Shown here: positions 2,886 to 21,451 of the stretch, piece by piece
Layout: each line of letters begins with the position of its first letter
Numbering within the stretch: the stretch's first letter is position 1
Origin: Oligoflexia bacterium
Lineage (GTDB): Bacteria; Bdellovibrionota; UBA1018
Reading direction: 5' to 3'
DNA length: 64,000 nucleotides
Assembly (NCBI GenBank): GCA_031292385.1
Contig: JARLHE010000040.1
Coordinates: 34,471 to 98,470, forward strand
The notes under the pieces: model-generated
Told to the model about the DNA's origin: nothing
Seen by the model: only the letters and a program-made list of their open reading frames with translations
The model's database searches: none
Translations under genes and position numbers: made by a program

Positions 2886-2896
2886 GATTAAGATCG

Positions 2897-3318: not shown

Positions 3319-3334
3319 TGGCACTCCCTTTGCT
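3319..3334 (+). promoter_or_regulatory. candidate sigma54 (RpoN) -24/-12 promoter TGGCAC-N5-TTGCT
   Basis: Exact match to the consensus TGGCAC N5 TTGCW, 14 nt upstream of the archease ATG. Confidence 0.4.
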
Positions 3335-3347
3335 GCCCTTTGTGCCG

Positions 3348-3803: not shown

Positions 3804-4174
3804 ATCGGATCGCCAACATCGTCTTGCTTGCTCATTTTTTGTGGGTTTTAGCGGTACTGCTTCCGGTTTTTCTGATTCCGTTTGGCTTTCGAAGGCGATG
3901 GCGTTGGCCGAGGGACCGTGCGCTTCGCGCCGTCCATCTTGCCATGATCGGAATCGTGATCGTCGAGTCTCTCTTGGGCGTTGTTTGCCCGCTTACTCTT
4001 TGGGAGGATCTGCTTCGAAGACGGGCCGGGAATTCGCCGTACGGGCGCTCCTTTGTCGAGCATTGGGTCGGCCGAGTTCTTTATTACGATTTTCCATCAT
4101 GGGTTTTCGTTGCCGTCTATCTGTTTCTCGGCTTTATCATTCTTATTTTGTATCGGCAGTATCCGCCGGACTGA
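3800..4174 (+). CDS. DUF2784-like small membrane protein
   Basis: Three or four predicted TM helices (LLAHFLWVLAVLLPVFLIPFGF, AVHLAMIGIVIVESLLGVV, VFVAVYLFLGFIILILY). It is translationally coupled to the archease gene. Confidence 0.5.
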   Translation: MNRIANIVLLAHFLWVLAVLLPVFLIPFGFRRRWRWPRDRALRAVHLAMIGIVIVESLLGVVCPLTLWEDLLRRRAGNSPYGRSFVEHWVGRVLYYDFPSWVFVAVYLFLGFIILILYRQYPPD

Positions 4175-4231: not shown

Positions 4232-5734
4232 ATGGCTCAATCAAGTGGCTCGATTGCCGGTCTGCCGACCGAACCGCGGTTCGATATCAGCCGCCTCACT
4301 CCTATCACGGATACTCTGTGGGAGCTGCCGGCTGACGCGGGCCGGGGAATGAGGGTGCCCGCAAGGATCTTCGGTACCCGTCACCTGCTAGAACAAATGG
4401 ATGCCGCGGTCTTCGAGCAAATTACGAACGTGGCGACGCTACCCGGTATCGTTCGATATGCTTGCTGCATGCCCGACGGGCATTCCGGGTATGGTTTTCC
4501 GATCGGAGGAGTCGCGGCATTCGACGCCGCGAACGGGGTGATTTCGCCCGGCGGCATAGGGTTCGACATCAACTGCGGGATGAGGCTCGTTGTGACATCG
4601 CTCACCTTCGATGAGGTGATGCCTCATCTTCATTCGCTCGTGGATCGGCTTTACGACCGGGTTCCGGCCGGAGTGGGTTGCGCGGGTCTACTTCGGCTTT
4701 CAACCGAAGACCTGCTTGAAATCGCGGAGAAGGGCGCGCTTTGGTGCTTGGAAAACGGCTACGCCTGGCCGGAGGACCTGGCGCTCACCGAGGATGGGGG
4801 GCGATCGCTGGGCGCCGATTCGAATCAAATCAGCCCTGAGGCGATCGCCCGAGGGCGCGGGCAAGTGGGGACTCTGGGCTCGGGAAATCATTATCTCGAA
4901 ATCCAGGTCGCTCGACCGGAAAATATTCACGATCCGCAAGTTGCCCGCAACCTCGGCATCGATCTACCGAATCAGGTTGTGATTATGTTTCATTGCGGAA
5001 GCCGGGGCTTCGGTCACCAAGTCGCAAGCGACTACCTGAGGCTCTTCATCGACGTCATGGAAAGAAAGTACGGAATCCGCGTTCCGGATCGGGAGCTGGC
5101 CTGTGCGCCTTTTGATTCGCCCGAAGGTCAGGCCTATTTCTCGGCGATGAAATGCGCGATCAATATGTCGTTCGTGAACCGCCAGGTCATTCTTCACCGG
5201 ATCCGGGAAGTCTTCAGCGACGAGTTTCATAAAGCCCCGGAAGAGCTCGGCTTACGCATGGTCTATGACGTCGCTCACAATACGGCCAAGCTCGAAAATC
5301 ATTGGATCGAGGGCAAGCAGAAAAAGCTCGTCGTTCATCGAAAAGGGGCGACTCGCTCTTTCGGGCCGGAAATGCCGGGTTTGCCCGAAAGATACCGCAA
5401 TTTAGGCCAACCCGTGATTATCGGGGGCAGCATGGAAAGCGGCTCCTATCTGATGCTGGGCCTGTCGAGCGCGGCCCCAGCGTTTTTCAGCAGCGCTCAT
5501 GGCAGCGGCCGAACGATGAGCCGAACTAAAGCCAAGCGTCAGTTCAGGGGGCGACAACTGGCCGACGATATGGCCTCGCGCGGAATTTACGTCAAGAGCG
5601 CATCCTATTCGGGCTTGGCGGAGGAGGCCGGCAAAGCTTACAAGGATATTGACGAGGTCGCTTCGGCGTCGGAGGCGGCGGGATTGAGCAGACGAATCGT
5701 GAAGCTGGTGCCCATTGGAAATATCAAAGGTTAG
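4232..5734 (+). CDS. rtcB: RNA-splicing ligase RtcB (3'-phosphate/5'-hydroxyl RNA ligase)
   Basis: Carries MPDGHSGYGFPIGG, GSGNHY, HNTA and C-terminal SAHGSGR, the RtcB metal- and GTP-binding motifs. The track start at 4208 is TTG; ATG 4232 has GGGGA 10 nt upstream. Confidence 0.85.
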   Translation: MAQSSGSIAGLPTEPRFDISRLTPITDTLWELPADAGRGMRVPARIFGTRHLLEQMDAAVFEQITNVATLPGIVRYACCMPDGHSGYGFPIGGVAAFDAANGVISPGGIGFDINCGMRLVVTSLTFDEVMPHLHSLVDRLYDRVPAGVGCAGLLRLSTEDLLEIAEKGALWCLENGYAWPEDLALTEDGGRSLGADSNQISPEAIARGRGQVGTLGSGNHYLEIQVARPENIHDPQVARNLGIDLPNQVVIMFHCGSRGFGHQVASDYLRLFIDVMERKYGIRVPDRELACAPFDSPEGQAYFSAMKCAINMSFVNRQVILHRIREVFSDEFHKAPEELGLRMVYDVAHNTAKLENHWIEGKQKKLVVHRKGATRSFGPEMPGLPERYRNLGQPVIIGGSMESGSYLMLGLSSAAPAFFSSAHGSGRTMSRTKAKRQFRGRQLADDMASRGIYVKSASYSGLAEEAGKAYKDIDEVASASEAAGLSRRIVKLVPIGNIKG

Positions 5735-5752
5735 AATCATAGGTTAAAAGAG

Positions 5753-6316
5753 ATGGAACGGCTTCGGCTCTTCATTGCCGTCGATGTCGGGGGTGATGTC
5801 CCTCATCGGTATGAAAGCGTCATCGGGAATTTGAAATGGCTCGGCAATTCATCCCGCATCAAGTGGATAGATCCCGGAAATCTCCATCTGACGCTGAAGT
5901 TCCTGGGGAGTACTCCTGTCGAAGCCCTTCCCGTTCTTGAAACGATTCTCAAGGACATCGCGGCGAATCATCGTGCGTTTTTCATCACGCTGGCGGGGCT
6001 TGGGATGTTTTCCACCCGGCAGCGCACGCAAGTGCTTTGGGCCGATGTTCAAGAAGGAAAAACGGAGCTTGAGCGCATCGCCGCGGAGCTGGACCAGTCC
6101 TTGGGGGAATTGGGTATTCCTCGCGAGCCGCGCGCGTTCGCCGCGCATCTCACCTTGGGGCGCGCCAAAGACCGGAGTTTTACGCGGGAGGCGTTAAATA
6201 AGCTCAAAGGCTTTCCATTCGGCACGACGCCGATTTCCGAGCTCGTGCTTTTTGAAAGCCAAACCCTTCCCGCTGGCGCGGTCTATCGCGCGCTTGTCCG
6301 AGCAAGATTGGCTTAG
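5753..6316 (+). CDS. thpR: RNA 2',3'-cyclic phosphodiesterase ThpR/LigT (2H phosphoesterase)
   Basis: Two HxT/S motifs (HLTLKF, HLTLGR) with 2H-family spacing. Lies 18 nt downstream of rtcB. Confidence 0.8.
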   Translation: MERLRLFIAVDVGGDVPHRYESVIGNLKWLGNSSRIKWIDPGNLHLTLKFLGSTPVEALPVLETILKDIAANHRAFFITLAGLGMFSTRQRTQVLWADVQEGKTELERIAAELDQSLGELGIPREPRAFAAHLTLGRAKDRSFTREALNKLKGFPFGTTPISELVLFESQTLPAGAVYRALVRARLA

Positions 6317-6433: not shown

Positions 6434-6709
6434 ATGGAAAAGACAGGAAATCTTGTCCTTCGGAATTCAATCGTGGCGATCGGTTTCGCTTTGGGCGGGT
6501 GCCAGGCTTCTCCGTCCCAGGATATCCTGGGTTCTTATTTTCCATCTTGGATGTTATGCGCGCTGGTCGGTATTTCTCTCACGATCGGGGCGTATCGGTT
6601 TTTTCTCAAGCAGGGGATCGATGAATTTCTTCCGCTGAAATCCCTGGTGTATCTCGGTTTGACGATCTCCATGACGTTTCTTACCTGGATCTTTTGGTTT
6701 CGGAATTAG
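6434..6709 (+). CDS. YtcA-like (DUF1656) small lipoprotein, efflux-operon leader gene
   Basis: GGCQASPSQDILGSYFPSWMLCAL resembles E. coli YtcA (SGCS..SP..IGAYYPSWFFCA). It precedes the HlyD/FUSC/OMF genes. Confidence 0.65.
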   Translation: MEKTGNLVLRNSIVAIGFALGGCQASPSQDILGSYFPSWMLCALVGISLTIGAYRFFLKQGIDEFLPLKSLVYLGLTISMTFLTWIFWFRN

Positions 6710-6723
6710 ACGAGGAGCGAGCG

Positions 6724-7551
6724 ATGAGTAACAGGCTGATCGGAAGGTCTATCGCACTGGTTGTCCTGGCTGCGTTGGTGGTTTCTTCCGCGCTTGTTAT
6801 TTATTTCATGGATACTCGGCCCCGGACGGATGACGCGTTTCTTTTGGCTTATGTGGCCAATATCGCCCCGGAGGTGTCTGGCCGGATTGTCTCGGTTCAG
6901 GTTCGTGACAATCAAAATGTGCGCGCGGGAGACGTGCTTTTCGTGATCGTGCCCGACCCCTTCCGATTCAAGCTCGAGGCGGCGAAGGCGCAGGCTACGG
7001 TTGCGGCGAGTACTTATGCGCGGATGGAACCCCTTCTGGGCAGGGGTTATGTGACCGCGGACAAGCTCGACCAGGCTCGTGCCGCGAAGGAAAGCTCGCT
7101 CGCTAACGAAGGGCTGGCAGATTACGATTTCCGCCAATCGACGGTAAGGGCACCGTTCGACGGCAAGGTCGTCGGCCTTAATACCGCGAACGGGGAGTAT
7201 GCGAACACCGGGCGCCCTCTTTTCACGATGATCGATACGTCCAGGTGGTATGTGATCGCGAATTTTCGCGAGACCGAAGTCAACGATATGAAGGTGGGGA
7301 CGGATGCGACGGTATATGTGATGGCGGATCGAAGCCGTGCTTTGCGCGGGCACGTCGATAGCGTCGGCTGGGGCGTTACTCCTGAAGAAGGGCAGGTTGT
7401 AAACGGACTTCCGAGGATACCGAAAACGCTGAATTGGGTCAGGCTGGCGCAGCGCTTTCCGGTCAGAATTCTTCTCGATCACCCACCGGACGATTTAATG
7501 CGCATCGGGGCGACCGCCGTGGTCGTGGTACATCATGGTACCCATCGCTGA
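6724..7551 (+). CDS. HlyD-family membrane fusion protein (MdtN/AaeA-like)
   Basis: N-terminal TM helix followed by the biotinyl-lipoyl and beta-barrel pattern of HlyD_D23 proteins. ATG 6724 sits 7 nt after AGGAG. Confidence 0.8.
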   Translation: MSNRLIGRSIALVVLAALVVSSALVIYFMDTRPRTDDAFLLAYVANIAPEVSGRIVSVQVRDNQNVRAGDVLFVIVPDPFRFKLEAAKAQATVAASTYARMEPLLGRGYVTADKLDQARAAKESSLANEGLADYDFRQSTVRAPFDGKVVGLNTANGEYANTGRPLFTMIDTSRWYVIANFRETEVNDMKVGTDATVYVMADRSRALRGHVDSVGWGVTPEEGQVVNGLPRIPKTLNWVRLAQRFPVRILLDHPPDDLMRIGATAVVVVHHGTHR

Positions 7552-9697
7552 AACCTTGGAAGTCAAGTCATCGGGTGGATTTGGTCCGGCGCTGACGAAG
7601 CTACTGCGCTCAGAATTGGGTGCGCGTCCTGGTCGAGTCCAGCATGTCCTTGCCATCAGCGCCTACGCGGTTTTGGCGGTGATTCTATCGGAGACCTTTC
7701 AAATCCCGGAACCGGCCCTGTCCGTTTACTATGTTTTTTTGATCACCAAGGAGGAGACGGCGTCGACGTTTTTGAGCGGAAGCCTGGCGGTTTTGGGCGT
7801 GAGCGCGGCGGTTCTCTCGGCGCTCGCGATTTACATGGTTTCGATCGGCGAGCCTGGCCTGAGGATGCCGCTCATGGCCGTCGTGATCTTCACGATCATG
7901 TTCATCTCGCGCGCATCGCGGCTGGGCGCCGCCAGCACGATGATCGGCCTTTTGGCGATTCAATCGCTCACTTTGCTGGACGTCATTCCGCTCTCCGATC
8001 CGCTTCCTGCCGCGGAATTACTGACGCAGCGGCTGCTTTGGCTTTGGGTGGTTATCCTGATGCCGGTTGGGCTGGTGATCGTGGGTAATATCGTCGCCGG
8101 GCGGGATCCCATTGATCTGTTCACTCACTATCTGGTCGAAGAGTTGGAGCTTGCGGCTCGAGTGCTGGTATCTCATCGCAGGCCCGCCGATCGGGAGCGA
8201 CTTGTCGCTTATGTTCAGGCGGATACGGGCAGGCTTCTGAAGTACCTGAAGATGTCGGGGACGTTCAAGAAGCGAACACTCCAAGAACAGGCGGTCAATC
8301 AGGCGCTGGTCGCTCATATGGGGCGTCTGACGGTGCTGCTTTCGCTATGGACGGAGCTTGACGTCAGTGAATCTCGGCTCGTGGAGGTCGCGGCCGGTTG
8401 CGGAGCCAAGCTTTTGTCGCAGGCGCGATTCATTCGGGAAAAGACGGCGGTTTCCATAAGGGCCTCCACGAAGCCAGAGTCGCCGTCGCTTCATGCCTTT
8501 AGTGAGGGATCGGAGAGCGATTCCGCGACCGAATGCAAGGCCTTCTATCTGCTGCGAAAAATAATTGAGCTGATCGAAACCTTGCCGCAGGCCTTGGTTT
8601 CGCGCGCCTCGTCGGACTCGGTTGAGCTCCAGAGCCGCGAAACCGAAATACCGAATCGGAGATTTCTACGGCCGGATGCGTTTCGCAATCGGGTCTACGT
8701 TCATTTCGCGCTCAAATGCACTCTTTCCGTTTTTACGGCTTATATTACCTACAATTTGTTGGATTGGCGCGGAATTCAGACGTGCATGATTACGACGATG
8801 GTCGTAACTCTCGGCAGCTTCGGAGAAACCGCGCATAAGATGGTCTTGCGCATCATCGGGGCGTTGATTGGCGGCGCCTTGGGGTTCTTGGCCGTCCTCT
8901 TCGTGATTCCTTATATGACGACCATCAGCGAATTGAGCTTGATGGTCGCGGTTGTTGCTTTCTTCTCCGCCTGGGTCATCACCAGCAGCGAACTGCTCTC
9001 CTATGCCGGGTTGCAAATCGCCCTGGCGTTTTTTCTCAGCACTCTCGTCGGATACGAGCCCACGGTGAATCTCGCGATCGGGCGAGATCGAATCATGGGC
9101 GTTTTATTCGGTAATTTGATTGTTTCCATTGTCTTTTCGACGATCTGGCCGGAAAGCGCCGTGGCACAATCAAAAGTGTCCCTCGCGCAGGCGCTTCGGA
9201 AATTGGCGGAATTCTTCGCGCCGGAATCCGAGCATCTGAGCGAGGTGCAGGCCGATTCACTTCTTTTTGAGTTAGGAGCCGCGATCGGGAGCGCGCGGCG
9301 CTTGGCGGTTTTGGACGCCTTTGAGCCCAAGCATATCAAGCAGGGAGCGATCCGGATGGCGGATCCCCGCGAAGTGATCGACGCGGTCCGCGATCTATGT
9401 AGCACTGCGATGGTTTTGCGCGATCCTCTTTTCAGGCATCCCGAACTGCCGTTGCTTACGAAGACCTACGATCAAGCGTTGAGCTTTTGGCTGGCGTTGT
9501 TCGCCAGGGAGGTCGAAGCCGGTATCGATGCCGGCGCTCCACCCGACGCGACTCCGCTGGTCCAAATCCTGCGCTCAGCGGCTCTTTGGTCAACCGAGAA
9601 GGTCGAGCTCCTGGCTTTGGCCGAGTGGTACCGCGCGCTCGATGATCAAGTGCATGGTCTTGAAAGATTGACAAAGCAAAAGGGGGCAACGAAGTGA
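7535..9697 (+). CDS. FUSC-family efflux transporter (MdtO/AaeB-like)
   Basis: 720 aa with two clusters of TM helices separated by a cytoplasmic domain. Overlaps the upstream gene. Confidence 0.8.
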   Translation: MVPIAETLEVKSSGGFGPALTKLLRSELGARPGRVQHVLAISAYAVLAVILSETFQIPEPALSVYYVFLITKEETASTFLSGSLAVLGVSAAVLSALAIYMVSIGEPGLRMPLMAVVIFTIMFISRASRLGAASTMIGLLAIQSLTLLDVIPLSDPLPAAELLTQRLLWLWVVILMPVGLVIVGNIVAGRDPIDLFTHYLVEELELAARVLVSHRRPADRERLVAYVQADTGRLLKYLKMSGTFKKRTLQEQAVNQALVAHMGRLTVLLSLWTELDVSESRLVEVAAGCGAKLLSQARFIREKTAVSIRASTKPESPSLHAFSEGSESDSATECKAFYLLRKIIELIETLPQALVSRASSDSVELQSRETEIPNRRFLRPDAFRNRVYVHFALKCTLSVFTAYITYNLLDWRGIQTCMITTMVVTLGSFGETAHKMVLRIIGALIGGALGFLAVLFVIPYMTTISELSLMVAVVAFFSAWVITSSELLSYAGLQIALAFFLSTLVGYEPTVNLAIGRDRIMGVLFGNLIVSIVFSTIWPESAVAQSKVSLAQALRKLAEFFAPESEHLSEVQADSLLFELGAAIGSARRLAVLDAFEPKHIKQGAIRMADPREVIDAVRDLCSTAMVLRDPLFRHPELPLLTKTYDQALSFWLALFAREVEAGIDAGAPPDATPLVQILRSAALWSTEKVELLALAEWYRALDDQVHGLERLTKQKGATK

Positions 9698-11205
9698 AGC
9701 CCCGTTCGGTTTTGACGAATACGGTAAGTGTCGCGGCCTCTCTGGTTTTGATCGGATGCTCGTCTGTCGCGCACTTGGCGCCGGAATCGCCCAGCCGGCC
9801 CTGGCAGCAAGCCGGAGAATCGCCGCAAAAGCCGATGATCACGCCAAAGTTCGGGGTGCGGCCGGATCCCGAACTTCCCTATAATGAGGAGCGAGTATCA
9901 ATTGCGGCGGATCATGTTTACACGCTCCCCGAGTTGATTGATTTAGCGGAACGCGCGAATCCCGATACGCGCATCGCCTGGGAAGAAGCCCAGCAAGCGG
10001 CTTTTCAGGTTGGGATTGAGCGCGCCAGTTATCTTCCGCAAATCAGCGCGGAAGTGCTTGCCGGCAAGCATTATGAACCGCTGCCGCTGCCGCCGGGAAG
10101 TTATTTCATCGCCAAAGGGGATGATCTTGAGCCTGATTTCATGATCAAATGGCTGCTCTTCGATTTCGGAAAGCGTGAGGCTCAGATTGACGCCGCCAAG
10201 GAGCTCTCCGTCGCTTCGAACATCGCTTTCACGGGTGCGCATCAAAAATTGATCTTCGAGGTGAGTAAGGCTTACTTCTATCTCGACGCGGTACGGGCGC
10301 AGCTTCGCGTTGCCGAGGATGCGCTGAAGAACGCGAATACTTTGCTGGATGCCGCCGGCGCCCGGCGACGGCACGGCTTCGAAACGATCACCGAAGTCAC
10401 GATCGCGCGCCGGGGAACGGCAAAGGCGCAATACGATCTTGAACGAGCCCGCTTGCTTGATAACGACGGCTATCATGCGCTTTTGGAGGCAATGGGTCTT
10501 ACGCCTACTTTGAGGCTGGGAATCGAGTCGAGCTCCGGTCGTCCCTTGCCGAAAGAGCTGACCGAAGAGGTGAGTGCTTACATTGATCGGGCCACCGTTC
10601 AGCGGCCGGATGTGGTCGCGGCCTTGGCTAAGGTTCGGGCGAGCGAATCCGAAATCGCCAAAGCCCAAGCGGAATTTTACCCGACGCTGGAGCTTAAAGG
10701 CCGGGCAGGCAGGAATTTCGCGCCCGTGAGCATCGACTTGGCGTCGGTTTATCAAGCGCCGTCCGGGCCGAGCTATAAGATCGACGATTGGGTCACTTCG
10801 ATTTCTCTCAATCTGAGCTTTTCCATCTATGACGGCGGGATACGCCAGCATAACGTGAGTATCGCCAACTCCAAGAGTGCGGCGGCCAAAGAGGAGCTGA
10901 TCAGAACCCAAGATCAGGCGGTTCGTCAGGTGGCAAGAGCTTACGACACGATGAGGAGCACGCTTGCCGAATACAATGCAGCTTTAGCGCTCGTCGACGC
11001 GGCGAATACGGCTTACGCCTCCGCTCTGGAATCTTATCGCAACGGAGTGGGCACATTCATCGATGCCGTTACAGCCGAAACGGAGAAAGCCCATGCCGAA
11101 TCAGCGCGAGCACAGGCTTATGCCGCGGCCTTGACCGCAGCCGCGACTCTCGCTTTCTCGACCGGCACGCTCACCTCGGTTGAGGCGCTGAATTCATCGC
11201 CTTAA
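9694..11205 (+). CDS. outer membrane efflux lipoprotein, NodT/OprM/MdtP family
   Basis: GTG start overlaps the stop of the FUSC gene. Lipobox LIGC, then the repeated OEP helical pattern of TolC-like proteins. Confidence 0.8.
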   Translation: MKPRSVLTNTVSVAASLVLIGCSSVAHLAPESPSRPWQQAGESPQKPMITPKFGVRPDPELPYNEERVSIAADHVYTLPELIDLAERANPDTRIAWEEAQQAAFQVGIERASYLPQISAEVLAGKHYEPLPLPPGSYFIAKGDDLEPDFMIKWLLFDFGKREAQIDAAKELSVASNIAFTGAHQKLIFEVSKAYFYLDAVRAQLRVAEDALKNANTLLDAAGARRRHGFETITEVTIARRGTAKAQYDLERARLLDNDGYHALLEAMGLTPTLRLGIESSSGRPLPKELTEEVSAYIDRATVQRPDVVAALAKVRASESEIAKAQAEFYPTLELKGRAGRNFAPVSIDLASVYQAPSGPSYKIDDWVTSISLNLSFSIYDGGIRQHNVSIANSKSAAAKEELIRTQDQAVRQVARAYDTMRSTLAEYNAALALVDAANTAYASALESYRNGVGTFIDAVTAETEKAHAESARAQAYAAALTAAATLAFSTGTLTSVEALNSSP

Positions 11206-11214: not shown

Positions 11215-11640
11215 TCAAGGCGCCGGAGGGGCTCCTGCCGTAACCGGCGTCCAGGCAATCGGGCAAGACATGGTTTCCGGATAGTAAGTTCCGGTCGCCT
11301 TGCAAAAGTACATGGTAGGAGTAACGGGGGCCGGCGCCGGAGCTACCACCACCGGCGGAGCCGCGGCCGGTGCCTGCTGTATGATGACTTGAGGCGCTGG
11401 CGCAACGGGCTGCGGTTGCACGATGATGGTTGAGGGCTGAGAGACCGGATGCGCGAAATAATACCAAGTGCCGCCGATCACCCACCACCAGCCCAGCTGT
11501 CCGTTGTGGCGATCGTGAATCCAGTGTCCCTCATTCCAATGGGAGCGATGCCATTGCCGATCGCGCTCGCCTGCTTGAACGAAAACCGGTAAGGATAAAA
11601 GCGAAAAAACCACCAAAAATAGCGAAGAGTTTCTTTTCAT
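11215..11640 (-). CDS. secreted His/Trp/Pro-rich hypothetical protein
   Basis: MKRNSSLFLVVFSLLSLPVFVQA is a signal peptide; the mature part contains HRSHWNEGHWIHDRH, WWW, a Pro/Ala/Val-rich linker and C-terminal YFCKATGTYYPETMSCPIAW. ATG at 11640; the upstream ORF extension is unsupported. Confidence 0.45.
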   Translation of the reverse strand: MKRNSSLFLVVFSLLSLPVFVQAGERDRQWHRSHWNEGHWIHDRHNGQLGWWWVIGGTWYYFAHPVSQPSTIIVQPQPVAPAPQVIIQQAPAAAPPVVVAPAPAPVTPTMYFCKATGTYYPETMSCPIAWTPVTAGAPPAP

Positions 11641-11869
11641 CAGGTGCACCTTGTTTTTTTGATTGGATCGAACTCTGAGCGAAGCGTCAAGGAATTCAAA
11701 TCGGCCGGCCTGACTTCTCGAACGGATTTGAGCAAAAAAGGCCCAAGGAGGCGTTTCGCGCGATGGACGCTTTGTGGATAAAGCATGTCCGTCCGGTGAG
11801 TTATCCCCAAGAACGGAGAACTTATCCCCAATGCGTTGCATTATCGTGAAAATGACGGGGTAATTTGTC

Positions 11870-12658
11870 TCATCCTTCGTAAGGAAGGAGCCCTCGAATT
11901 GTTTGCGCGCCATCAATCGGGAAGGTTTGCCCGGTGGTGTAAGACGCCGCATCCGAGCAAAGGTAGAGAACCGCTCCGACCATCTCTTCAGGCTCCGCTC
12001 CTCGGTGCAATGGCGCCGCCGCTTTGATTTTTGCGTTGAATTGCTTGTCCTCATCCCAGGCCTTGGTCATGGGGGTGCGGACCCATCCGGGCGCTAACGC
12101 GTTGACGCGAATTCCATGATTTGCATTTTCGATCGCGGCTGTTTTCGTGAGCCCGATGACTCCGTGTTTCGCGGCCACATAGGCCGCCATCCCGCCTTCC
12201 GGAAGTAGCCCAGCGACCGAGGCCGTATTCACAATCGCCCCTTTTCCTTTTTTGACCATATATTGAAGCTCATACTTCAGGCAGAGGAAGGTTCCCTTTA
12301 GGTCAATATGAAGGACACGATCAAATGCCGCTTCATCGAAGTCGGCAATAGGCTGGGGGGCGTGAAGAATGCCGGCGTTGTTAAATGCGCAATCGAGGCC
12401 TCCATAGACACGAACGGTTTCTTCAATCAAGGCTTTGACAGATTGAGAGTTGCCGACGTCGGTCTTCACAAAGTGCGCCTGGCCGTTCTCTTTTTTGATC
12501 ATTTCGACTGTTTCTTTGGATCCGGCTTCGTTCATATCGCCGATCACGACTTGAGCGCCCTGGCGCGCAAAACCCAGGGATACCGCTCGACCGATTCCAG
12601 AGCTTCCGCCGGTAACCAGAACGGTTTTGTTTGAGAAATCCAATAGATTTTCAGCCAT
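11870..12658 (-). CDS. SDR-family oxidoreductase
   Basis: TGGSSGIGRA cofactor-binding motif, NNAG, and the YxxxK active site (YVAAKHG). Confidence 0.85.
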   Translation of the reverse strand: MAENLLDFSNKTVLVTGGSSGIGRAVSLGFARQGAQVVIGDMNEAGSKETVEMIKKENGQAHFVKTDVGNSQSVKALIEETVRVYGGLDCAFNNAGILHAPQPIADFDEAAFDRVLHIDLKGTFLCLKYELQYMVKKGKGAIVNTASVAGLLPEGGMAAYVAAKHGVIGLTKTAAIENANHGIRVNALAPGWVRTPMTKAWDEDKQFNAKIKAAAPLHRGAEPEEMVGAVLYLCSDAASYTTGQTFPIDGAQTIRGLLPYEG

Positions 12659-12674
12659 GCGATTAATCCTTTAT

Positions 12675-14210
12675 TTAAATGTAAATTCCCGATTTACCGG
12701 GCGCGATAATGCCATTCGGATCCAGGGATCGCTTCAAGCGCTTATTTAAATTCCGTAATTCCTTGCTGTAGGTTTTCGCGGCCAGGTCCATGAACGCGAT
12801 ATTCGTGCGATAGCAGCCGTATCCAAGCTTCGCGTTCGCCTCGAGGGCTTCCTTGAAACAGGCATGAGCTCTTTGGGTCTCTTCAGGATTGGTTCTATCA
12901 AAGAGAAGATCAGCGACTTGCTCCAAGTGTCGCACTCCGAGCAAAAAGCCGATCGGGCAGTTAAAGCCATGCTTATTGAAAATTTCCTTCGTGGCGTTAT
13001 AGCATCGGACGACATCATAGGCCCGGGCGGGAAGGGCCGGCGCAAACCACGCGGAGCCGCCTCCTCCGATGAAGTTGTAGTTTCCAAACTCATGAAGCTC
13101 AGGGCGTCCGGTCATCATCCTTTGCCAGTGGCGCGCATCGGGGCTCGCGTTGAACGCTTCCCCGGTGAAGACGAATCCGCCCGTGGACTCGAAAGCCTCT
13201 CTACAAATTTTCAAATTGACGGCGACCTGTTCCTTGGTTCCATACAAGGTCGAGAAAAGGGCAAACTGCGGTATGCCGTGATCTTTATAATATTTAGCTA
13301 AAACGGCATCGGGAATCGCCCCTGGGCCATCGTAAATATCCGATCGCTTTTTCGTTGAAATAACGCCATAAAGCGCGGAACCAACGACCCCATTTTCCAT
13401 CACGGCGGAGAGTCGCATGCGACTGGCCATCTCAACTCCTTTGGCCATGGACTCGACATCATTCCAGCCCACGCCGAAGGATTCGTAGTGCGGAGGTTTT
13501 TTCATCAGCCAGAGGCCCATCTTCGTCACAACGCCTAAGTTCGACTGACTGAAAAGCCCGTCAACCCAGGGGCCGTAACCCCAACGATAAGATTGCCAGG
13601 TCTCTCCTTTGCCGATGCTTCCCATGCCGGTACGCACGACCTCGCCGTTTGCCAGGACAACTTCCAAGCCGCAGAAGTTAGAGAAATGTTCGCCGGCGCG
13701 ATTGTAGCCCACGCCCCGATCGAGAGTATTTCCCACCGGCCCAGCCAGCCCCCCGGACGAAGGAAAGCTCGCCCAGACATCCAGATTTCTTTCGTTGATA
13801 TAATCAACGAGTTCCTTATAGGTGACGCCGGGCTCCACAAGGGCGGTGCAAAGCACCGGGTCAATCTCAATGATCTTGTTCATGCCTCTCATGTCCAAAA
13901 CCATCTGTCCCGGTGTCGCCGGCGCCGCGGTGCCATATCCAAAATTCCGGCCGGTCGAAATCGGCCAAACGGGAATTCGATACTTGTTACAAATGCCAAG
14001 AACCTCTTGTACGTCCTTAACCGAACGAGCCAGTAAGGCCCCCGACGGCTGATGCTGGGAGTTTTCCGCCGGAATCATGATCTTCGAATACGGAGCGATT
14101 TTCTCCGGAGCCACAAGGACGTTTTCGTTTCCGAGCGCTTCTTTATATTCGCCGATGGCCTTATCAAAAGCTTCTTTGGAAACACCCTTGGGTAAAACGG
14201 AATTGGTCAT
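12675..14210 (-). CDS. FAD-linked oxidase, VAO/PCMH family (p-cresol methylhydroxylase flavoprotein-like)
   Basis: FAD_binding_4 N-terminal domain (PVWPISTGRNFGYG...SGGLAGP); about 510 aa from the MTNSVLPKG start. The upstream ORF extension was rejected. Confidence 0.8.
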   Translation of the reverse strand: MTNSVLPKGVSKEAFDKAIGEYKEALGNENVLVAPEKIAPYSKIMIPAENSQHQPSGALLARSVKDVQEVLGICNKYRIPVWPISTGRNFGYGTAAPATPGQMVLDMRGMNKIIEIDPVLCTALVEPGVTYKELVDYINERNLDVWASFPSSGGLAGPVGNTLDRGVGYNRAGEHFSNFCGLEVVLANGEVVRTGMGSIGKGETWQSYRWGYGPWVDGLFSQSNLGVVTKMGLWLMKKPPHYESFGVGWNDVESMAKGVEMASRMRLSAVMENGVVGSALYGVISTKKRSDIYDGPGAIPDAVLAKYYKDHGIPQFALFSTLYGTKEQVAVNLKICREAFESTGGFVFTGEAFNASPDARHWQRMMTGRPELHEFGNYNFIGGGGSAWFAPALPARAYDVVRCYNATKEIFNKHGFNCPIGFLLGVRHLEQVADLLFDRTNPEETQRAHACFKEALEANAKLGYGCYRTNIAFMDLAAKTYSKELRNLNKRLKRSLDPNGIIAPGKSGIYI

Positions 14211-14221
14211 AAAGTTCTCTC

Positions 14222-14929
14222 TTAAATTCTCGCGACAAACGAGACAAAACTGAAATGAGTTGTCGTCGACGTGGAATGAGCGTCTGGTCCTAGCAATGTG
14301 GAAGTCCTGACGGTACGTGGCCGCCAATTTCCAGAGCCGATCTGGCTCAGTTGATATCCGAGGCCCTGCTCCCATGACGTGAAGGACGGCAAGGCGCGCA
14401 TATTCTCTCCGGAGGTTGGCAAGACTTCATGAAATGAGGATTCACGAATCAAAGAGCTCTCGGCGCGCTGAGAAATCACTTGCGCGAATGCCGATCCAAT
14501 TCCCTGGCTGGCGGCGGTCGATTGAAAATAATGGCGGGTAAAATCCTTTCCACCCACATGTGAGCCCGAACAAAGTAAATCGGCTTTGCGTAAGCGCAGT
14601 CCTTCGTTGAAGTCAGTGAAAGCGCCATCATTCATGATGCCAATAATTACGGAACCCGGATGCTTGCCGACATGTGACTCGAGCTGATCCAGTCTATTGA
14701 ATCTCAATTCTCGTATTTTTGTCGCGGCGCTGGCGGCCAGTCGAATGCCGTTATCAAATTCAGCGTGAGCTTCTCCCAATCGTAAAATTTGTAGCGAAGA
14801 AATTGATCGAGGCAAAAGCATGGCCTCCGCCTGGTTTAAAAGGCCACTCAACGGATTCAGCGCGATGGTTGCGCCGAGCGCTGTGGATCGTGAAAGAAAT
14901 TCCCTGCGGGAAAGATGAAACGAGGTCAT
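14222..14929 (-). CDS. Tat-signal protein, PchX-like accessory subunit of flavocytochrome
   Basis: MTSFHLSRREFLSRSTALGATIA is a twin-arginine signal. It sits between the cytochrome c and flavoprotein genes, and its start overlaps the cytochrome c stop (ATGA). Confidence 0.5.
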   Translation of the reverse strand: MTSFHLSRREFLSRSTALGATIALNPLSGLLNQAEAMLLPRSISSLQILRLGEAHAEFDNGIRLAASAATKIRELRFNRLDQLESHVGKHPGSVIIGIMNDGAFTDFNEGLRLRKADLLCSGSHVGGKDFTRHYFQSTAASQGIGSAFAQVISQRAESSLIRESSFHEVLPTSGENMRALPSFTSWEQGLGYQLSQIGSGNWRPRTVRTSTLLGPDAHSTSTTTHFSFVSFVARI

Positions 14930-15324
14930 CACTTTCCTCCTGGTTGTGCTTTCTCAACCCAATCGGCTAAGCCATCGAGCTCCTGATCGCTGATTTCAGA
15001 AGGAAAAAATGGCGGCATGGTTTGAATGCCTCTGCGAGCAAACGCTTTTAGGGCTGCGGCCGGATAGTGCCTTCCCAGAATCGCGGGCCCCACACTTGGA
15101 TCGCCCGCATTGGGCTCGTGGCACTGGGAGCATAGGACTTGATAGATCTGCGCCGAATTCTTCCATTGACCGGCTCCATAACTTTTCCAATTTACTCTTT
15201 CGGAACCCTTTGTTGCACCGAGCTCCGGAGTAAAAGGAAAAATCGACATCTCGTTCTTGGATGAATCACCGCTGCTCGGTAGTGCGGCTAGAAAAAGTCC
15301 GATCGATAATAAATATATTCTCAC
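14929..15324 (-). CDS. class I c-type cytochrome (PchC-like)
   Basis: One CSQCH heme motif plus a signal peptide. A GTG at 15324 lies 7 nt after GGGAGG and is preferred over the track ATG at 15363. Confidence 0.65.
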   Translation of the reverse strand: MRIYLLSIGLFLAALPSSGDSSKNEMSIFPFTPELGATKGSERVNWKSYGAGQWKNSAQIYQVLCSQCHEPNAGDPSVGPAILGRHYPAAALKAFARRGIQTMPPFFPSEISDQELDGLADWVEKAQPGGK

Positions 15325-15471
15325 AGGTGCCCTCCCTGAAGCCCATTGTGGAGACGCCGTCATAGGTCGGGAAAGCTACTTGGGGCAACGTGATATGCGG
15401 AATATATTTTAGTGCTCATGTTGCTTTGCGTGAAATTGCGCGGGTCTGCTCCTTGCAGTCCGTTCGAGTTT

Positions 15472-17850: not shown

Positions 17851-20800
17851 TCAGTGCCGCGCGACCGACGAACACTCCTTTCCTTTGCAATACACGGTTA
17901 AAGTCGCGTCGGCCGGAGCGATATTGTTGCCTAGGTCGGTCTGCAAGGCGCCGACCGGCAACTCGTTGTGGAAGTGGCCCTTGCAATTCCCGATCACGTA
18001 CAACGTCACCGTACAGGAGCCGTTGGCCGGGATCGAGCCACCCTTCAAGGTCACACTTCCCGTTTTGGATATGACCTTTCCTCCGCAAGTGGTTTTGGCG
18101 TAACCGGCGTTTTCCAAGCCGTCAGGCAAATAGTCAGTAAGCGGAGCCGTCAGCTTGGCGATCGTGTTGTTCGGGTTGCTCAGGGTAATGGTCAAGACCG
18201 ATGCCTGTCCCTTTTTGATTTTGTCCGGACAGAACGACTTGCTGAGCGTAGGTGGAATGGTCACGGGAGTCGGAAGAACGGTCAACGTCGCGATGGCCGG
18301 CGCGGCGTTGTTGCCTGCGCTTGTCTGCAAGGCGCCGATGGCCAACGTGTCGATGTAATTGCCTCCGCTGGCAACGGTCACGGGCACCGTTATCGTGCAG
18401 GAGCCGTTGGCCGGGATCGCACCTCCCGTCAATGTCACCGTTGAAGCGCCGGTACTGACCACACCTCCGCAGGTATTGCTGGCGCTGCCGGAAACCACGA
18501 CACCGCTGGGTAACGTGTCCGTAAGCGGCGAGGTCAGGCTCGCAGCCGTTGCGTTGGTGTTGCTGAGGGTGATGGTGAGAGTCGAAGCACCGCCCGAAGG
18601 AATCGTCGCCGGGCTGAAGGCCTTGCCAAGCGTGACGGTAGAGGGAATGGAAACCGTCAACGTCGCGATGGCCGGAGCGGTATTGCTTCCGCTACTGGTC
18701 TGCAATGCACCGACGGCAAGCGAATCGATGTAGTTGCCGCCGTTCGCCGCGGTCACGGGCACCGTCACGGTACAGGATCCGTTAGCCGGGATCGATCCTC
18801 CGGTCAGAGTCACCGTCGACGAGCTTGTGGTGACCGTGCCGCCACAAGTGTTGCTCCCGCTACCTGAGACTACGAGTCCGCTAGGCAACGTATCGGTAAA
18901 CGGCGAGGTTAATGCCGCGGCTGTCGCGTTGGCGTTGCTCAGGGTAACGGTGAGAGTCGATGTACCGCCCGCCGCGATCGTTGCAGGGCTGAAAGCCTTG
19001 CCCAACGAGGGCGCGACCACCGGCGTGATCACCGTCAGGGTAGCGATGGCCGGGGCGGTATTATTGCCGTTGCTCGTCTGCAAGGAGCCAGCGGGCAGGG
19101 TGTCGATGTAGTTGCCGCCGTTCGCCGCGGTCACGGGTACCGTCACCGTGCAGGAGCTGTTAGCCGGGATCGCTCCTCCGGTCAGCGTCACCGTCGAAGA
19201 GCTTGTGGTGACCGTGCCGCCACAAGTGTTGCTCCCGCTACCTGAGACTACGAGTCCGCTAGGCAGCGTATCGGTAAACGGAGCGCTTAAGCTCGCGGCC
19301 GTCGCGTTGGTGTTGCTCAAGGTAATGGTGAGCGTCGAGCTTCCGCCCGCATTGATCGTGGCCGGGCTGAAGGCTTTGCCCAGCGCGGGCGCGACCTCTG
19401 GCGTATTGACGGTCAATGTCGCGATTGCTGGAAACGCATTGATTCCGTTGCTGGTTTGCAGGGAACCGGCGGCGATCGAGTCGATATAGTTGCCCCCATT
19501 AGCGGCAGTCACGGGTACCGTGACCGTGCAGGAGCCGTTGGCCGGGATCGATCCGCCCGTCAGGGTTACCGTAGAAGTCGTTGTAGTGACCGTGCCGCCA
19601 CAAGTGCTGCTCCCGCTGCCAGAGACGGCAACACCACTTGGCAGCGTGTCGGTGAACGGCGAGGTCAGGCTCGCGGCCGCCGAATCAGCGTTGCTCAGGG
19701 TAATGGTGAGGGTCGAGGTACCTCCCGCATCGATAATCGCTGGGCCAAATGCTTTGCCGAGAGTCGGCGCTATCACGGGAGCGACGACCGTTAAGGTCGC
19801 AACCGCTGGAGCGGCATTGGCGCCGTTACTGGTCTGCAATGCGCCGGCAGCCAATGAGTTGATGTAGTTGCCGCCGTTTGGCGCGGTCACAGGTACCGTG
19901 ACCGTGCACGAGCCGTTGGCCGGGATCGCTCCAGCCGATAGGGTCACTGTCGAGGAGGTCGTGGTCACCGTACCGCCGCAGGTGTCGCTGCCGCTGCCGG
20001 AGACGGTAACACCGCTCGGCAATGTGTCGGTGAGCGGCGAGGTGATGCTCGCGGCCGCCGAATCGGCGTTGCTCAGGGTAATGGTGAGGGTCGAGCTACC
20101 GCCCGCATTAATGGTGGCTGGAGCGAAGTCCTTGCCGAGCGTGGGCGCGGTGGGCGGTTGAGGAACGGTCAAGGTCGCAACTGCCGGAGCGGCGTTGCTT
20201 CCATTGCTGGTCTGCAAGGCACCGACGGCGAGCGAGTCGACGTAGCTGCCGCCGTTCGCGGCGGTCACGGGCACGGTGACCGTGCAGGAACCGCCGGCCG
20301 GGATCGAACCTCCCGTCAAAGTAATTGCTGAAGTGCTTGTCGTGATCGTACCGCCGCAGGTGGTGCTACCACTGCCGGAGATCACTACGCCGCTGGGCAA
20401 CGTATCGGTGAATGGGGAGGTTAGGCTCGCGGCCGTGGTGCCGGAGTTGCTCAACGTGATCGTGAGGGTCGATGGGTTCCCCTCGCTGACGGTGGCCGGA
20501 CTGAAGGCCTTGCCAAGAGTGATTTCAGGCAGGGCGCACACGGAGAGCGTGACGACATTGGAATCCATCGTCACCGCGCCGTTCTGAGCCAGAGTTCTGC
20601 CGGATACAGTGGCGTCGGTATTGAGCGTGATGCTCGTAAGCGCGAGAATATTTCCTATGAATGTCGTGCTTGTACCGATCGTCGCGGAGCTGCCGACTTG
20701 CCAAAAGACATTGCATTCTTGAGCACCATTAATGAGCAGCACGGACGAGCCACTCGCCGTCGTGAGTGTGCTCCCTATCTTGAAAATCCAGACCGCATTT

Positions 20801-21270
20801 GGATTGCCTTGGGCATCTAGAGTGACCGCTCCCGTCAGTTGAGCCGAGGACGAAAAGCAATAGACTCCCGGCACGAGTGTGAGTCCGCCGATATCCGTTG
20901 GAACGCCATAGGTGGTATCGCACGCCTGGCCCGCCAAATCGTTATACGCGGTAGTGGTATCGCTCTGAGCCTGAGCCGCTACCGCATCCGCCGCGTGTAT
21001 GGTCCCTCCGACCACGGTTCCCGGCGGAAAGCCCGTGACCGCCGTGCCCGGGCTGACTCCAAGATTTCCGGTCACAATGCTCGGCCCGGTATTGGTTACC
21101 GTCGAGGCTCCGAGTACGGCAAAGCTCTGCGCAGTCCCCAATGAAGGCGCGACCTGTGCCCACGCCGCATGAAATGAGGGGGCAAAAGGAAACGCGGCGA
21201 TCGCGCCGATAAACGCAAACTTCGCAAAAACGCTTTTAAAAATTCTAGTTCGAACGATGGGACTTTTCAT
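17851..21270 (-). CDS. large secreted surface protein: ice-binding-like DUF3494 beta-helix head + ~8 DUF11 repeats
   Basis: Signal peptide MKSPIVRTRIFKSVFAKFAFIGAIAAF. The N-terminal domain (AQSFAVLGASTVTNTGPSIVTGNLGVSPGTAVTGFPPG...AQSDTTTAYNDLA) matches the DUF3494 IBP-like consensus. It is followed by ~125-aa repeats with TDTLPSG..VSGSGS.TCGG...SCTVTVPVTA (DUF11-like). The track's ORF start at 21360 is an unsupported extension. Confidence 0.8.
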   Translation of the reverse strand: MKSPIVRTRIFKSVFAKFAFIGAIAAFPFAPSFHAAWAQVAPSLGTAQSFAVLGASTVTNTGPSIVTGNLGVSPGTAVTGFPPGTVVGGTIHAADAVAAQAQSDTTTAYNDLAGQACDTTYGVPTDIGGLTLVPGVYCFSSSAQLTGAVTLDAQGNPNAVWIFKIGSTLTTASGSSVLLINGAQECNVFWQVGSSATIGTSTTFIGNILALTSITLNTDATVSGRTLAQNGAVTMDSNVVTLSVCALPEITLGKAFSPATVSEGNPSTLTITLSNSGTTAASLTSPFTDTLPSGVVISGSGSTTCGGTITTSTSAITLTGGSIPAGGSCTVTVPVTAANGGSYVDSLAVGALQTSNGSNAAPAVATLTVPQPPTAPTLGKDFAPATINAGGSSTLTITLSNADSAAASITSPLTDTLPSGVTVSGSGSDTCGGTVTTTSSTVTLSAGAIPANGSCTVTVPVTAPNGGNYINSLAAGALQTSNGANAAPAVATLTVVAPVIAPTLGKAFGPAIIDAGGTSTLTITLSNADSAAASLTSPFTDTLPSGVAVSGSGSSTCGGTVTTTTSTVTLTGGSIPANGSCTVTVPVTAANGGNYIDSIAAGSLQTSNGINAFPAIATLTVNTPEVAPALGKAFSPATINAGGSSTLTITLSNTNATAASLSAPFTDTLPSGLVVSGSGSNTCGGTVTTSSSTVTLTGGAIPANSSCTVTVPVTAANGGNYIDTLPAGSLQTSNGNNTAPAIATLTVITPVVAPSLGKAFSPATIAAGGTSTLTVTLSNANATAAALTSPFTDTLPSGLVVSGSGSNTCGGTVTTSSSTVTLTGGSIPANGSCTVTVPVTAANGGNYIDSLAVGALQTSSGSNTAPAIATLTVSIPSTVTLGKAFSPATIPSGGASTLTITLSNTNATAASLTSPLTDTLPSGVVVSGSASNTCGGVVSTGASTVTLTGGAIPANGSCTITVPVTVASGGNYIDTLAIGALQTSAGNNAAPAIATLTVLPTPVTIPPTLSKSFCPDKIKKGQASVLTITLSNPNNTIAKLTAPLTDYLPDGLENAGYAKTTCGGKVISKTGSVTLKGGSIPANGSCTVTLYVIGNCKGHFHNELPVGALQTDLGNNIAPADATLTVYCKGKECSSVARH
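18359..20245. repeat. five near-identical 378-bp tandem repeats inside the surface-protein gene, flanked by more diverged copies out to about 17854 and 20460
   Basis: Antisense ORFs recur at 18359, 18734, 19112, 19490 and 19868 with a 378-nt period and near-identical translations. Confidence 0.7.
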
Positions 21271-21451
21271 ATCAGGCTCCGAATGCTCATTAATAAATGA
21301 AGATGTTTCTTCCGTCAGATCTGCGATGTGACCGCGGGGCCTGTGCAGAATTGGTGCCATCGATGCATCGGGAAAAACGACTGGGCTGGCGCTACATCAC
21401 CGAGTTTCGTGCGTAGCTCGCTTCATGTTGCAATTCACGTTGCAGGAGGCA

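Follow-up and report, generated by a model that had tools for sequence, protein, structure and literature searches.

A four-gene operon on the minus strand of an Oligoflexia MAG encodes what is, fairly probably, a periplasmic PCMH-type flavocytochrome c, a predicted 4-alkylphenol methyl- or methylene-hydroxylase, together with a small protein, PchX, on whose Tat signal the flavoprotein subunit would be carried across the membrane as a hitchhiker. PCMH is a textbook flavocytochrome that has been studied since the 1970s, and the enzyme family found here is ordinary; it is the export mechanism that is apparently undescribed. PCMH-type enzymes use water to hydroxylate 4-alkylphenols and hand the electrons on to their cytochrome. 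In the literature, PCMH is reported to be periplasmic, and its flavoproteins PchF, PcmI, and BpfA are reported to be devoid of a signal. Open-access papers up to 2025-2026 still list the middle gene as of "unknown function" and assume that the Sec signal of the cytochrome guides the signal-less flavoprotein to the periplasm.

The window, that is, the whole stretch of 64,000 nucleotides analysed, was read directly for open reading frames and start sites. All four genes were found in the order given by the sequence-only reading (cytochrome c, Tat-signal protein, flavoprotein, SDR), with the following features:

14929..15363, minus strand: pchC-like class I cytochrome c, 144 aa from ATG 15363 or 131 aa from GTG 15324
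14222..14929, minus strand: pchX homologue, 235 aa, with a Tat signal and an alpha/beta domain
14822..14929, minus strand: PchX twin-arginine signal peptide, residues 1-36, MTSFHLSRREFLSRSTALGATIALNPLSGLLNQAEA, then ML...
12675..14210, minus strand: pchF-like flavoprotein subunit, 511 aa, without a signal peptide
11870..12658, minus strand: classical SDR, 262 aa, cytoplasmic
15331..15336, minus strand: Shine-Dalgarno sequence (GGGAGG) with a 6-nt spacer to the in-frame GTG (15324-15322)
15406..15434, minus strand: candidate promoter of sigma-70-like type (TTCACG-17-TAAAAT), upstream of the cytochrome gene

The genes are tightly packed. The cytochrome stop codon overlaps the start of the middle gene (GTGATGA), which may begin at ATG 14929 (235 aa), 6 nt downstream of an AGGAGG, or at GTG 14932 (236 aa); the flavoprotein ATG (14210) lies 11 nt past the TAA of the middle gene, and the SDR ATG (12658) lies 16 nt past the flavoprotein stop. 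For the cytochrome, the GTG start preferred earlier over the annotated ATG is indeed the likelier one on Shine-Dalgarno grounds only, as no such sequence was seen upstream of ATG 15363, and the spacer between GGGAGG and the GTG measures 6 nt rather than the 7 nt initially given. The candidate promoter is one of three sigma-70-like sites in the region, against 3.0 expected in shuffles, and the scan of the region for promoters and terminators returned none above chance.

As checks on its proposal, the sequence-only reading had named alignments to PchC, PchX, and PchF and a search for the covalent-FAD tyrosine, all of which came out in its favour. The flavoprotein aligns with P. putida PchF (1dii_A) at an E-value of 4e-159 over residues 2-509, is 48 % identical to Pseudomonas PchF, and contains the PF01565 (FAD_binding_4; 1e-26) and PF02913 (FAD-oxidase C-terminal; 9e-6) domains of the VAO/PCMH fold. 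PDB entries 1DII and 1WVE are structures of PchF and PchC. Tyr378 corresponds to PchF Tyr384, the covalent FAD site (8-alpha-O-tyrosyl link), and the phenolate-binding residues are kept, with Tyr92 matching PchF Tyr95 and Tyr467/Arg468 matching PchF Tyr473/Arg474; the 1dii_A alignment pairs GNYNF/GLYNW, NFGYG/NFGYG, and CYRTN/VYRVN, and all four residues (Y92, Y378, Y467, and R468) are invariant columns in the alignment of PchF homologues (A3). Its N-terminus, which lines up with residue 5 of the mature PchF protein, bears no export signal and no hydrophobic extension, so re-annotation upheld the claim that this subunit is signal-less. A longer in-frame start at 14375 was considered and rejected; it would overlap the middle gene, it adds no hydrophobic region, and homologues align from the MTNS start.

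The cytochrome contains a CSQCH heme site and the conserved Met-Pro ligand region, begins with a hydrophobic, Sec-type signal, and matches PF13442 (8e-15); its best solved relative in the PDB search is PchC itself (1dii_C, E 1.7e-10). A monoheme cytochrome partner with an export signal is thus encoded in the same operon as the flavoprotein. The SDR matches adh_short_C2 (9e-66) and is generic, with Hped (4ure) ranking eighth among its many PDB matches (2e-48). As judged by sequence comparison, the family assignments for flavoprotein, cytochrome, and SDR lie far beyond chance. In the nearest relatives (L001, L002, L004, L005, L006, and L084), pchF likewise has a same-strand SDR as its neighbour, whereas more distant relatives have an aldehyde dehydrogenase instead. 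This split is consistent with the earlier suggestion that the SDR may act on the benzylic alcohol product; it is probably a dehydrogenase for a benzylic secondary alcohol, and an SDR in place of the aldehyde dehydrogenase probably marks a subclade acting on 4-ethylphenol-like substrates.

The Tat signal claimed for the middle protein is evident in its N-terminus, which comprises SRREFL, a mildly hydrophobic h-region, and an AEA cleavage motif and matches TIGR01409 (Tat signal) above the cut-off. The RR pair is invariant in a 77-sequence PchX alignment (A4) and falls inside the first 40 residues in all but 5 of the 108 PchX-family proteins listed. The middle ORF and two alignments of it gave only 2, 21, and 13 matches in word-indexed protein searches, which were seemingly swamped by signal-peptide words; an exhaustive HMM search with PchX gave 91. 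The reference for comparison was a 229-aa Pseudomonas protein, a cluster member named "PchX" by UniRef, since the P. putida pch plasmid is absent from PLSDB. Pairwise BLAST between the window protein and this reference is weak (25 % identity, E 0.04), but alignment A4 matches the reference over its full length at 99.6 % by hhalign (E 7e-24, 222 columns), and the locus HMM matches PchX at E 1e-33 (5e-25 without the signal). At the profile level, the middle protein is therefore a true PchX homologue.

Beyond the signal, PchX has no match to a Pfam family, and its mature domain shows neither a match to cofactor-type families nor a recognisable cofactor motif. The fold is predicted to be alpha/beta, and the Foldseek search found no solved structural relative, its matches lying at noise level (TM <=0.29). 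Within the family, every member has His124, and at least 90 % of members keep Gly92, Gly97, and His133 (97 % for His133). The C-terminal VSFV strand, which is a family consensus, was considered as a possible docking tail; this idea was dropped, as the predicted model places it as a well-packed strand (pLDDT about 97).

More than 100 related loci were compared overall, and the counts below come from the 83 loci, on plasmids and in genomes, that encode a PchF homologue; these were gathered through PchF and not through PchX. PchX lies directly upstream of pchF in 69 of these and downstream in one, so that the middle gene has orthologs beside pchF-like genes in 70/83 loci; their absence had been named as a finding that would overturn the proposal. 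By an ORF rule, 64 loci have the cytochrome gene immediately upstream of PchX, and tblastn adds at least four more; the trio of cytochrome, PchX, and pchF genes stays together across many phyla. In 11 of the 83 loci, a short Tat-signal protein is encoded upstream of the cytochrome gene. Sphingomonad loci of this kind were initially taken as PchX-less counter-examples, which was withdrawn once the short protein was found. With signals removed, this protein can be aligned to the N-terminal subdomain of PchX (hhalign 77 %, E 2e-5), although the short sphingomonad proteins and a Sphingobium bpf-cluster protein are weakly or not detectably related to PchX; we assume that they are its functional equivalents.

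One locus among the 83 (L006) has no PchX; here the Tat signal is part of PchF, which begins MTLSRREFLSSAALVAASAALP... and overlaps the cytochrome stop. The same cis-signal pattern recurs in three metagenome contigs, whose PchF proteins are 92 % (L084) and 77 % (L117) identical to that of L006 or identical over the available part (L108). Since members are 77-100 % identical, the clade appears to represent effectively one evolutionary event. PchF homologues of 32-38 % identity without a cytochrome gene also lack PchX, and such distant homologues have no cis Tat signal either; at L077, neither a cytochrome gene nor PchX is present in the stretch examined.

We propose that pchX most likely encodes a carrier on which the FAD-loaded, signal-less flavoprotein would cross the membrane by Tat. 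This reading is well supported by the comparison of loci, and it is strengthened because the clade with a Tat signal on PchF has lost PchX. PchF, which has no signal peptide of its own, would fold and bind FAD in the cytoplasm; PchX, whose only recognisable targeting feature is the twin-arginine signal, would bind folded PchF, which would pass the Tat translocase as its hitchhiker. PchC would be exported unfolded by Sec, acquire heme in the periplasm, and then bind PchF there. The binding of PchC to PchF triggers the covalent Tyr-FAD link. To our knowledge, guidance by the Sec signal of the cytochrome cannot work for a folded FAD protein. Solved PCMH structures hold only flavoprotein and cytochrome chains, so a carrier PchX would have to dissociate and would form no part of the mature alpha2-beta2 enzyme. 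The cytoplasmic SDR would oxidise the secondary benzylic alcohol, e.g., 1-(4-hydroxyphenyl)ethanol, to the ketone. We infer the physical PchX-PchF complex, the release of PchX after export, and the substrate; for Tat dependence and the formation of the complex before export, the indirect basis is the cis-signal clade without PchX. The conserved His124 and His133 hint at a ligand or partner interaction, and the carrier model leaves both unexplained.

Other explanations of PchX have to be weighed against this pattern. It is unlikely that PchX is an independent periplasmic accessory, such as a ligand- or substrate-binding protein, an electron-acceptor adaptor, or a PchF-PchC assembly factor, that uses Tat for its own folding while PchF is exported otherwise: the complete loss of PchX where PchF bears its own Tat signal would be unexpected for an independent periplasmic job, no other export route is known for a signal-less folded FAD protein, and the structural matches lie at noise level (Foldseek TM <=0.29). 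The tight coupling of the genes, with an overlapping start/stop and an 11-nt gap, and the functional parallel with the gamma, alpha, and beta subunits of B. cepacia FAD glucose dehydrogenase would also fit a stable third (gamma) subunit serving export and stability in the Oligoflexia enzyme, as the small subunit does in FAD glucose, fructose, and gluconate dehydrogenases. We regard this as quite unlikely, given that crystals of the P. putida enzyme contain just the flavoprotein and the cytochrome and that PchX shares neither sequence family nor fold type with the all-helical gamma subunit.

Some relatives of the flavoprotein are cytoplasmic, VAO and eugenol oxidase among them, and give good scores, which raises the question of whether the arrangement is meaningless for export, the flavoprotein being an oxidase-type enzyme of the cytoplasm and the other two, cytochrome and Tat protein, serving a separate periplasmic function. 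This is very improbable, because PCMH is reported to be periplasmic, PchC is the closest solved relative of the cytochrome, the three genes co-travel across many phyla, and homologues without the cytochrome are also without PchX.

If the Tat escort is real, it would account for the arrival of the flavoprotein in the periplasm, for the conservation of pchX in many phyla, and for an FAD link that turns covalent only once the cytochrome has bound. A further extension is put forward tentatively, with more doubt than confidence: PchX might found an undescribed family of dedicated, cofactor-less alpha/beta Tat "escort" proteins whose sole role is to lend an RR signal to an FAD-loaded flavoprotein and which, once in the periplasm, are displaced by the cytochrome that Sec has exported. 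Under this extension, PchX could possibly act as a placeholder on the cytochrome-binding face that delays covalent flavinylation until PchC arrives, and short or unrelated Tat proteins would do this job in sphingomonad clusters and in those for bisphenol-F hydroxylases. In practical terms, heterologous production of PCMH-type or bisphenol-F hydroxylases for bioremediation or biocatalysis may need co-expression of the escort gene or fusion of a Tat signal to the flavoprotein, the latter being what the L006 clade did naturally.

Among known systems, the closest is the Pseudomonas pch locus (pRA4000/pRA500 type). The Pseudomonas locus in our comparison (L143) encodes Aldedh, cytochrome c, the 229-aa PchX, and PchF (999 bits to 1dii_A), i.e., pchA-pchC-pchX-pchF, and the window shares its order of cytochrome c, PchX, and flavoprotein, as the sequence-only reading had proposed. 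In both, PchX bears a Tat motif and PchF is signal-less. The window differs in that neither an adjacent pchA aldehyde dehydrogenase nor an XylR-type regulator is present and an SDR follows pchF; its PchX is only 25 % identical in pairwise alignment, and its host is an Oligoflexia MAG, not a pseudomonad. The p-ethylphenol cluster of Aromatoleum aromaticum EbN1 likewise links a PchF-type gene to an SDR (Hped) rather than to an aldehyde dehydrogenase, and in both cases an efflux system adjoins the catabolic genes, that of the window being of the AaeAB/FUSC type. However, the window SDR is not specifically Hped-like, and the carboxylase and CoA-ligase genes that lie downstream in EbN1 were not seen here.

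In terms of export logic, the hydrogenase small and large subunits and DmsAB are classical Tat hitchhiker systems, and PaoABC (PMC4273604) is another. As in the proposed PchX pathway, the cargo is a folded cofactor protein that has no signal and travels with an RR-bearing partner; in those systems, however, the partner is a permanent, cofactor-containing subunit, whereas PchX would be a transient escort without a recognisable cofactor motif. A precedent is the FAD glucose dehydrogenase of B. cepacia, whose FAD subunit has no signal of its own and is carried by a small gamma subunit with a Tat signal; the third component is a heme c subunit (PMC6719666). The window follows the same logic, combining a small protein that bears the Tat signal with a signal-less catalytic subunit that binds FAD and an electron-transferring heme c subunit, although PchX has no sequence or fold homology to Gluconate_2-dh3 or the B. 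cepacia gamma subunit (predicted alpha/beta versus five helices), and the catalytic subunits are of the GMC type in B. cepacia and of the VAO/PCMH type in the window. The gamma subunit stays in the B. cepacia complex, whereas PchX is absent from solved PCMH.

The minus strand of the window carries four genes, all co-directional, from 15363 to 11870, with a divergent gene and an efflux set on the plus strand:

15363 (ATG) to 14929 (stop), minus strand: cytochrome c, 144 aa, heme motif CSQCH
from ATG 14929, minus strand: middle protein (PchX homologue), 235 aa, Tat signal
from ATG 14210, minus strand, 11 nt past the middle-gene stop: flavoprotein, 511 aa
from ATG 12658, minus strand, 16 nt past the flavoprotein gene: classical SDR, 262 aa
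15412-16479, plus strand: zinc-ADH/quinone-oxidoreductase-family gene (PIG3-like; quinone-reductase family), divergent from the operon
6694-11205, plus strand: AaeAB-like efflux set adjoining the hydroxylase operon
6694-7551, plus strand: HlyD-family membrane fusion protein of the efflux set
7535-9697, plus strand: FUSC-family pump of the efflux set
9694-11205, plus strand: outer-membrane factor of the efflux set

The four-gene operon with a Tat-signal middle gene, as proposed in the sequence-only reading, is confirmed by the open reading frames, family matches and a TIGR01409 match above cut-off in the middle protein. The first residues of this protein, MTSFHLSRREFLSRSTALGATIALNPLSGLLNQAEA/ML, form a canonical twin-arginine signal that includes an A-x-A site; the ATG of its gene overlaps the cytochrome stop (GTGATGA) and is preceded at 6 nt by AGGAGG. 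Because the sequence upstream of the cytochrome ATG 15363 has no Shine-Dalgarno motif and the in-frame GTG 15324 follows GGGAGG (15336-15331) with a spacer of 6 nt, the GTG, favoured in that reading as well, is the likelier start and would yield a precursor of 131 aa whose Sec-type signal is short. A longer flavoprotein frame from 14375, the one given in the ORF list, overlaps the middle gene and lacks a hydrophobic stretch; it was rejected in favour of the MTNS start, from which homologues align.

Both subunits indicate that the operon encodes a p-cresol methylhydroxylase (PCMH)-type flavocytochrome c. The flavoprotein contains FAD_binding_4 and FAD-oxidase C domains and aligns over its full length with the PCMH flavoprotein of P. 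putida (1dii_A; E 4e-159). The covalent-FAD tyrosine, proposed earlier as a check, is present (GNYNF versus GLYNW, aligned with PchF Tyr384), as are the phenolate-binding Tyr95 and the Tyr473/Arg474 pair (PchF numbering), and the equivalents of Tyr384, Tyr95, Tyr473 and Arg474 are invariant among four close flavoprotein homologues. Among solved structures, the cytochrome is closest to 1dii_C, the cytochrome subunit of PCMH (E 1.7e-10); E values for the following matches are about 0.05.

With p-cresol, the hydroxylase itself takes its product on to the aldehyde, so that an aldehyde dehydrogenase is the next enzyme, and 4-ethylphenol is converted to a secondary alcohol, which an SDR (Hped in A. 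aromaticum EbN1) oxidizes to 4-hydroxyacetophenone. Among all loci, the nearest PchF relatives (at least 54 % identity; loci L001, L002, L004, L005, L006 and L084) have a same-strand SDR adjoining the genes and lack a same-strand aldehyde dehydrogenase; in L004 such a gene is encoded on the other strand, at a distance of 853 nt. An aldehyde dehydrogenase adjoins the genes, with no SDR, in most relatives at 46-52 %, including those of Aromatoleum, Thauera and Halomonas, and the Pseudomonas locus L143 likewise has the former and lacks the latter. The suggestion that the SDR acts on the benzylic alcohol is consistent with this split among relatives. The window SDR is a generic classical SDR, with Hped (4ure) only its eighth PDB match, which makes a 4-ethylphenol-like substrate plausible but weakly indicated. 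In the EbN1 p-ethylphenol catabolic cluster, hped is linked to pchF and, as beside the window operon, an efflux cluster is adjacent. The PIG3-like gene might act in the pathway on the quinone methide, ketone or aldehyde side. Genes for ring cleavage or a CoA pathway are absent from the neighbourhood of the operon.

Other genes in the surroundings include a small protein just downstream of the SDR (11215-11700, minus strand), with a signal peptide, a Trp/His-rich core GWWWVIGGTWYYF, a Pro/Ala-rich tail and no Pfam match. A 1169-aa secreted repeat protein (17851-21360, minus strand), in the region of highest G+C in the window (0.62), contains an ice-binding-like domain, DUF11 and seven DUF7933 repeats. 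Two riboflavin biosynthesis genes, a ribBA fusion and one resembling ribD, are found together with a cation-diffusion-facilitator gene at a distance of 10-15 kb (25321-28144, minus strand); all are probably unrelated housekeeping genes.

The middle protein, recorded in the protein database as originating from an Oligoflexia MAG, has no Pfam family and no PDB sequence match. A small family profile, run as an HMM exhaustively against 1.84 billion representative proteins, recovered 91 relatives (E 0.001 or better), nearly all of 160-290 aa. One 90 %-identity cluster holds a Pseudomonas protein (229 aa) named PchX by UniRef, whose locus L143, with the order XylR-type regulator, aldehyde dehydrogenase, cytochrome c, PchX and a flavoprotein scoring 999 bits to 1dii_A, is the canonical pchACXF locus. 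The window-centred profile aligns end to end with this PchX (hhalign 99.6 %, E 7e-24), and an HMM built from locus-derived sequences matches it at E 5e-25 even with the signal peptide removed. The earlier likening to pchC-pchX-pchF is thereby borne out at the profile level, and the middle gene is assigned as a PchX homologue; pairwise identity is only 25 %, indicating a fast-evolving family. The N-terminus of Pseudomonas PchX likewise shows a Tat motif (MNVERRSLLKSMALGGLASAAMGSSGLAMANA). Of the 108 family proteins listed, only 5 lack an RR pair in their first 40 residues, and the C-terminal end of most is a hydrophobic motif resembling F-V-S-F-V-x-x-x. In a 77-sequence alignment, R8, R9 and His124 are invariant, Gly92, Gly97 and His133 are kept in at least 90 %, and the sole Pfam match is TAT_signal (17 members).

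An AlphaFold2 model from this alignment is confident (pLDDT 88.7, pTM 0.81) and comprises the signal helix followed by an alpha/beta domain in which strands and helices alternate; its last strand, formed by the conserved C-terminal VSFV, is well packed. Foldseek gave no match at E 0.001 or better (TM-scores 0.29 or less), and the lack of Foldseek, Pfam and PDB relatives marks an uncharacterised family with no solved relative or recognisable cofactor motif. Two conserved histidines sit in adjacent strands:

14558-14560, minus strand: His124 of PchX, invariant in the family
14531-14533, minus strand: His133 of PchX, kept in 97 % of the family

In all, 3 plasmid and 80 genome loci, collected through PchF and spanning Proteobacteria, Nitrospirota, Acidobacteriota, Actinomycetota, Sericytochromatia and Campylobacterota, were classified with the PchX HMM. 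PchX lies immediately upstream of pchF in 69 of the 83 and downstream in one (L011), so conserved orthologues do adjoin pchF; a cytochrome gene directly precedes PchX in 64 loci by the ORF rule and in at least 4 more by tblastn. Eleven loci, from sphingomonads, Steroidobacteraceae and L053, seemed to break this pattern: in place of a full PchX they encode, immediately ahead of the cytochrome gene, a protein of 107-139 aa that bears a clear Tat signal. Sphingomonad and Steroidobacteraceae loci with this short protein are:

L022, L032, L035, L038, L044, L045, L048, L049, L056 and L076: short Tat protein
L146, 2219-2593: short Tat protein

This short family aligns weakly with the PchX N-terminal subdomain (hhalign 77 %, E 2e-5, signal peptides removed) and probably represents a truncated PchX relative. 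In L053 (3250-3972), a single reading frame with no intervening stop covers both the short Tat protein and cytochrome c, which are either fused or encoded by two in-frame genes. L145 (Sphingobium yanoikuyae SJTF8 plasmid pF1) holds a bisphenol-F hydroxylase cluster of the bpfAB type, in which the cytochrome gene is followed by that of a hypothetical protein (5479-6048; 189 aa) bearing a Tat-like signal (MSAIEVTRRVALGAGALGVGAVAL) and showing no detectable homology to PchX; the BPF preprint does not consider this protein and assumes export through the cytochrome's signal. The available stretch of L077 contains neither a cytochrome gene nor PchX.

A small PchF clade has its own N-terminal twin-arginine signal (MTLSRREFLSS...) and no PchX gene, a natural signal-in-cis version. 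In L006 (3878-5530), PchF is 39 residues longer and begins with MTLSRREFLSSAALVAASAALPSVVSGA; its start codon, preceded by a good Shine-Dalgarno sequence, overlaps the stop of the cytochrome gene. A metagenome scan added L084 (about 2501-4150; 92 % identical, same architecture), L117 (from about 2501; 77 %, N-terminus MTISRRDFLSSSALIGVSAAIPAG, same architecture) and L108 (identical to L006 over the available part), all with a cytochrome gene directly upstream and without PchX. A separate PchX thus appears dispensable where PchF bears the signal itself. Six distant PchF homologues (32-38 % identity) without a cytochrome gene also lack PchX, and a seventh, L121 (32 %), has a PchX match only at chance level (E 0.0014). 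Both patterns are those that a carrier role for PchX would predict, and they support the hitchhiker idea of the sequence-only reading as an inference.

The Sec pathway carries chains across in unfolded form and heme attachment takes place in the periplasm, so that export of the whole complex on the cytochrome's signal cannot hold; FAD loading occurs in the cytoplasm. PchF alone, according to work attributed to the McIntire laboratory, reportedly binds FAD non-covalently and is covalently flavinylated only on PchC binding. Cytochrome-guided export is nevertheless what a 2025 preprint assumes, which describes PCMH as periplasmic (citing Hopper et al. 1985) and reports SignalP signals on the cytochrome subunits and none on PchF, PcmI or BpfA. 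Comparative genomics strongly suggests instead that PchX serves as the export escort of the flavoprotein, a reading we consider probable. FAD-bearing PchF would bind PchX in the cytoplasm, the pair would cross by Tat, and PchC would replace or join PchX in the periplasm and trigger flavinylation, leaving a final alpha2-beta2 enzyme without PchX. The carrier model leaves the conserved His124 and His133 unexplained. No open-access paper linking PCMH to hitchhiking was found.

The smaller remainder of probability is shared by three alternatives. PchX could have an independent periplasmic role, which is hard to reconcile with the cis-signal and cytochrome-less patterns. It could be a stable third subunit, although 1DII and 1WVE contain two chain types only, which argues that PchX is absent from the final enzyme. 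Lastly, it could have no export role at all.

The window operon is an ordinary new PCMH-family member in an unusual host; the interest is general and reaches beyond it, lying in PchX as a widespread, structurally undescribed Tat-signal protein. The FAD-dependent glucose dehydrogenase of B. cepacia (PMC6719666), with its small Tat-signal gamma 'hitchhiker', signal-less FAD alpha subunit and heme c beta subunit, is the nearest precedent and works by the logic proposed for the PchX system. Unlike PchX, however, its gamma subunit is all-helical, unrelated in sequence and retained in the complex, which places PchX outside the gamma-subunit family.
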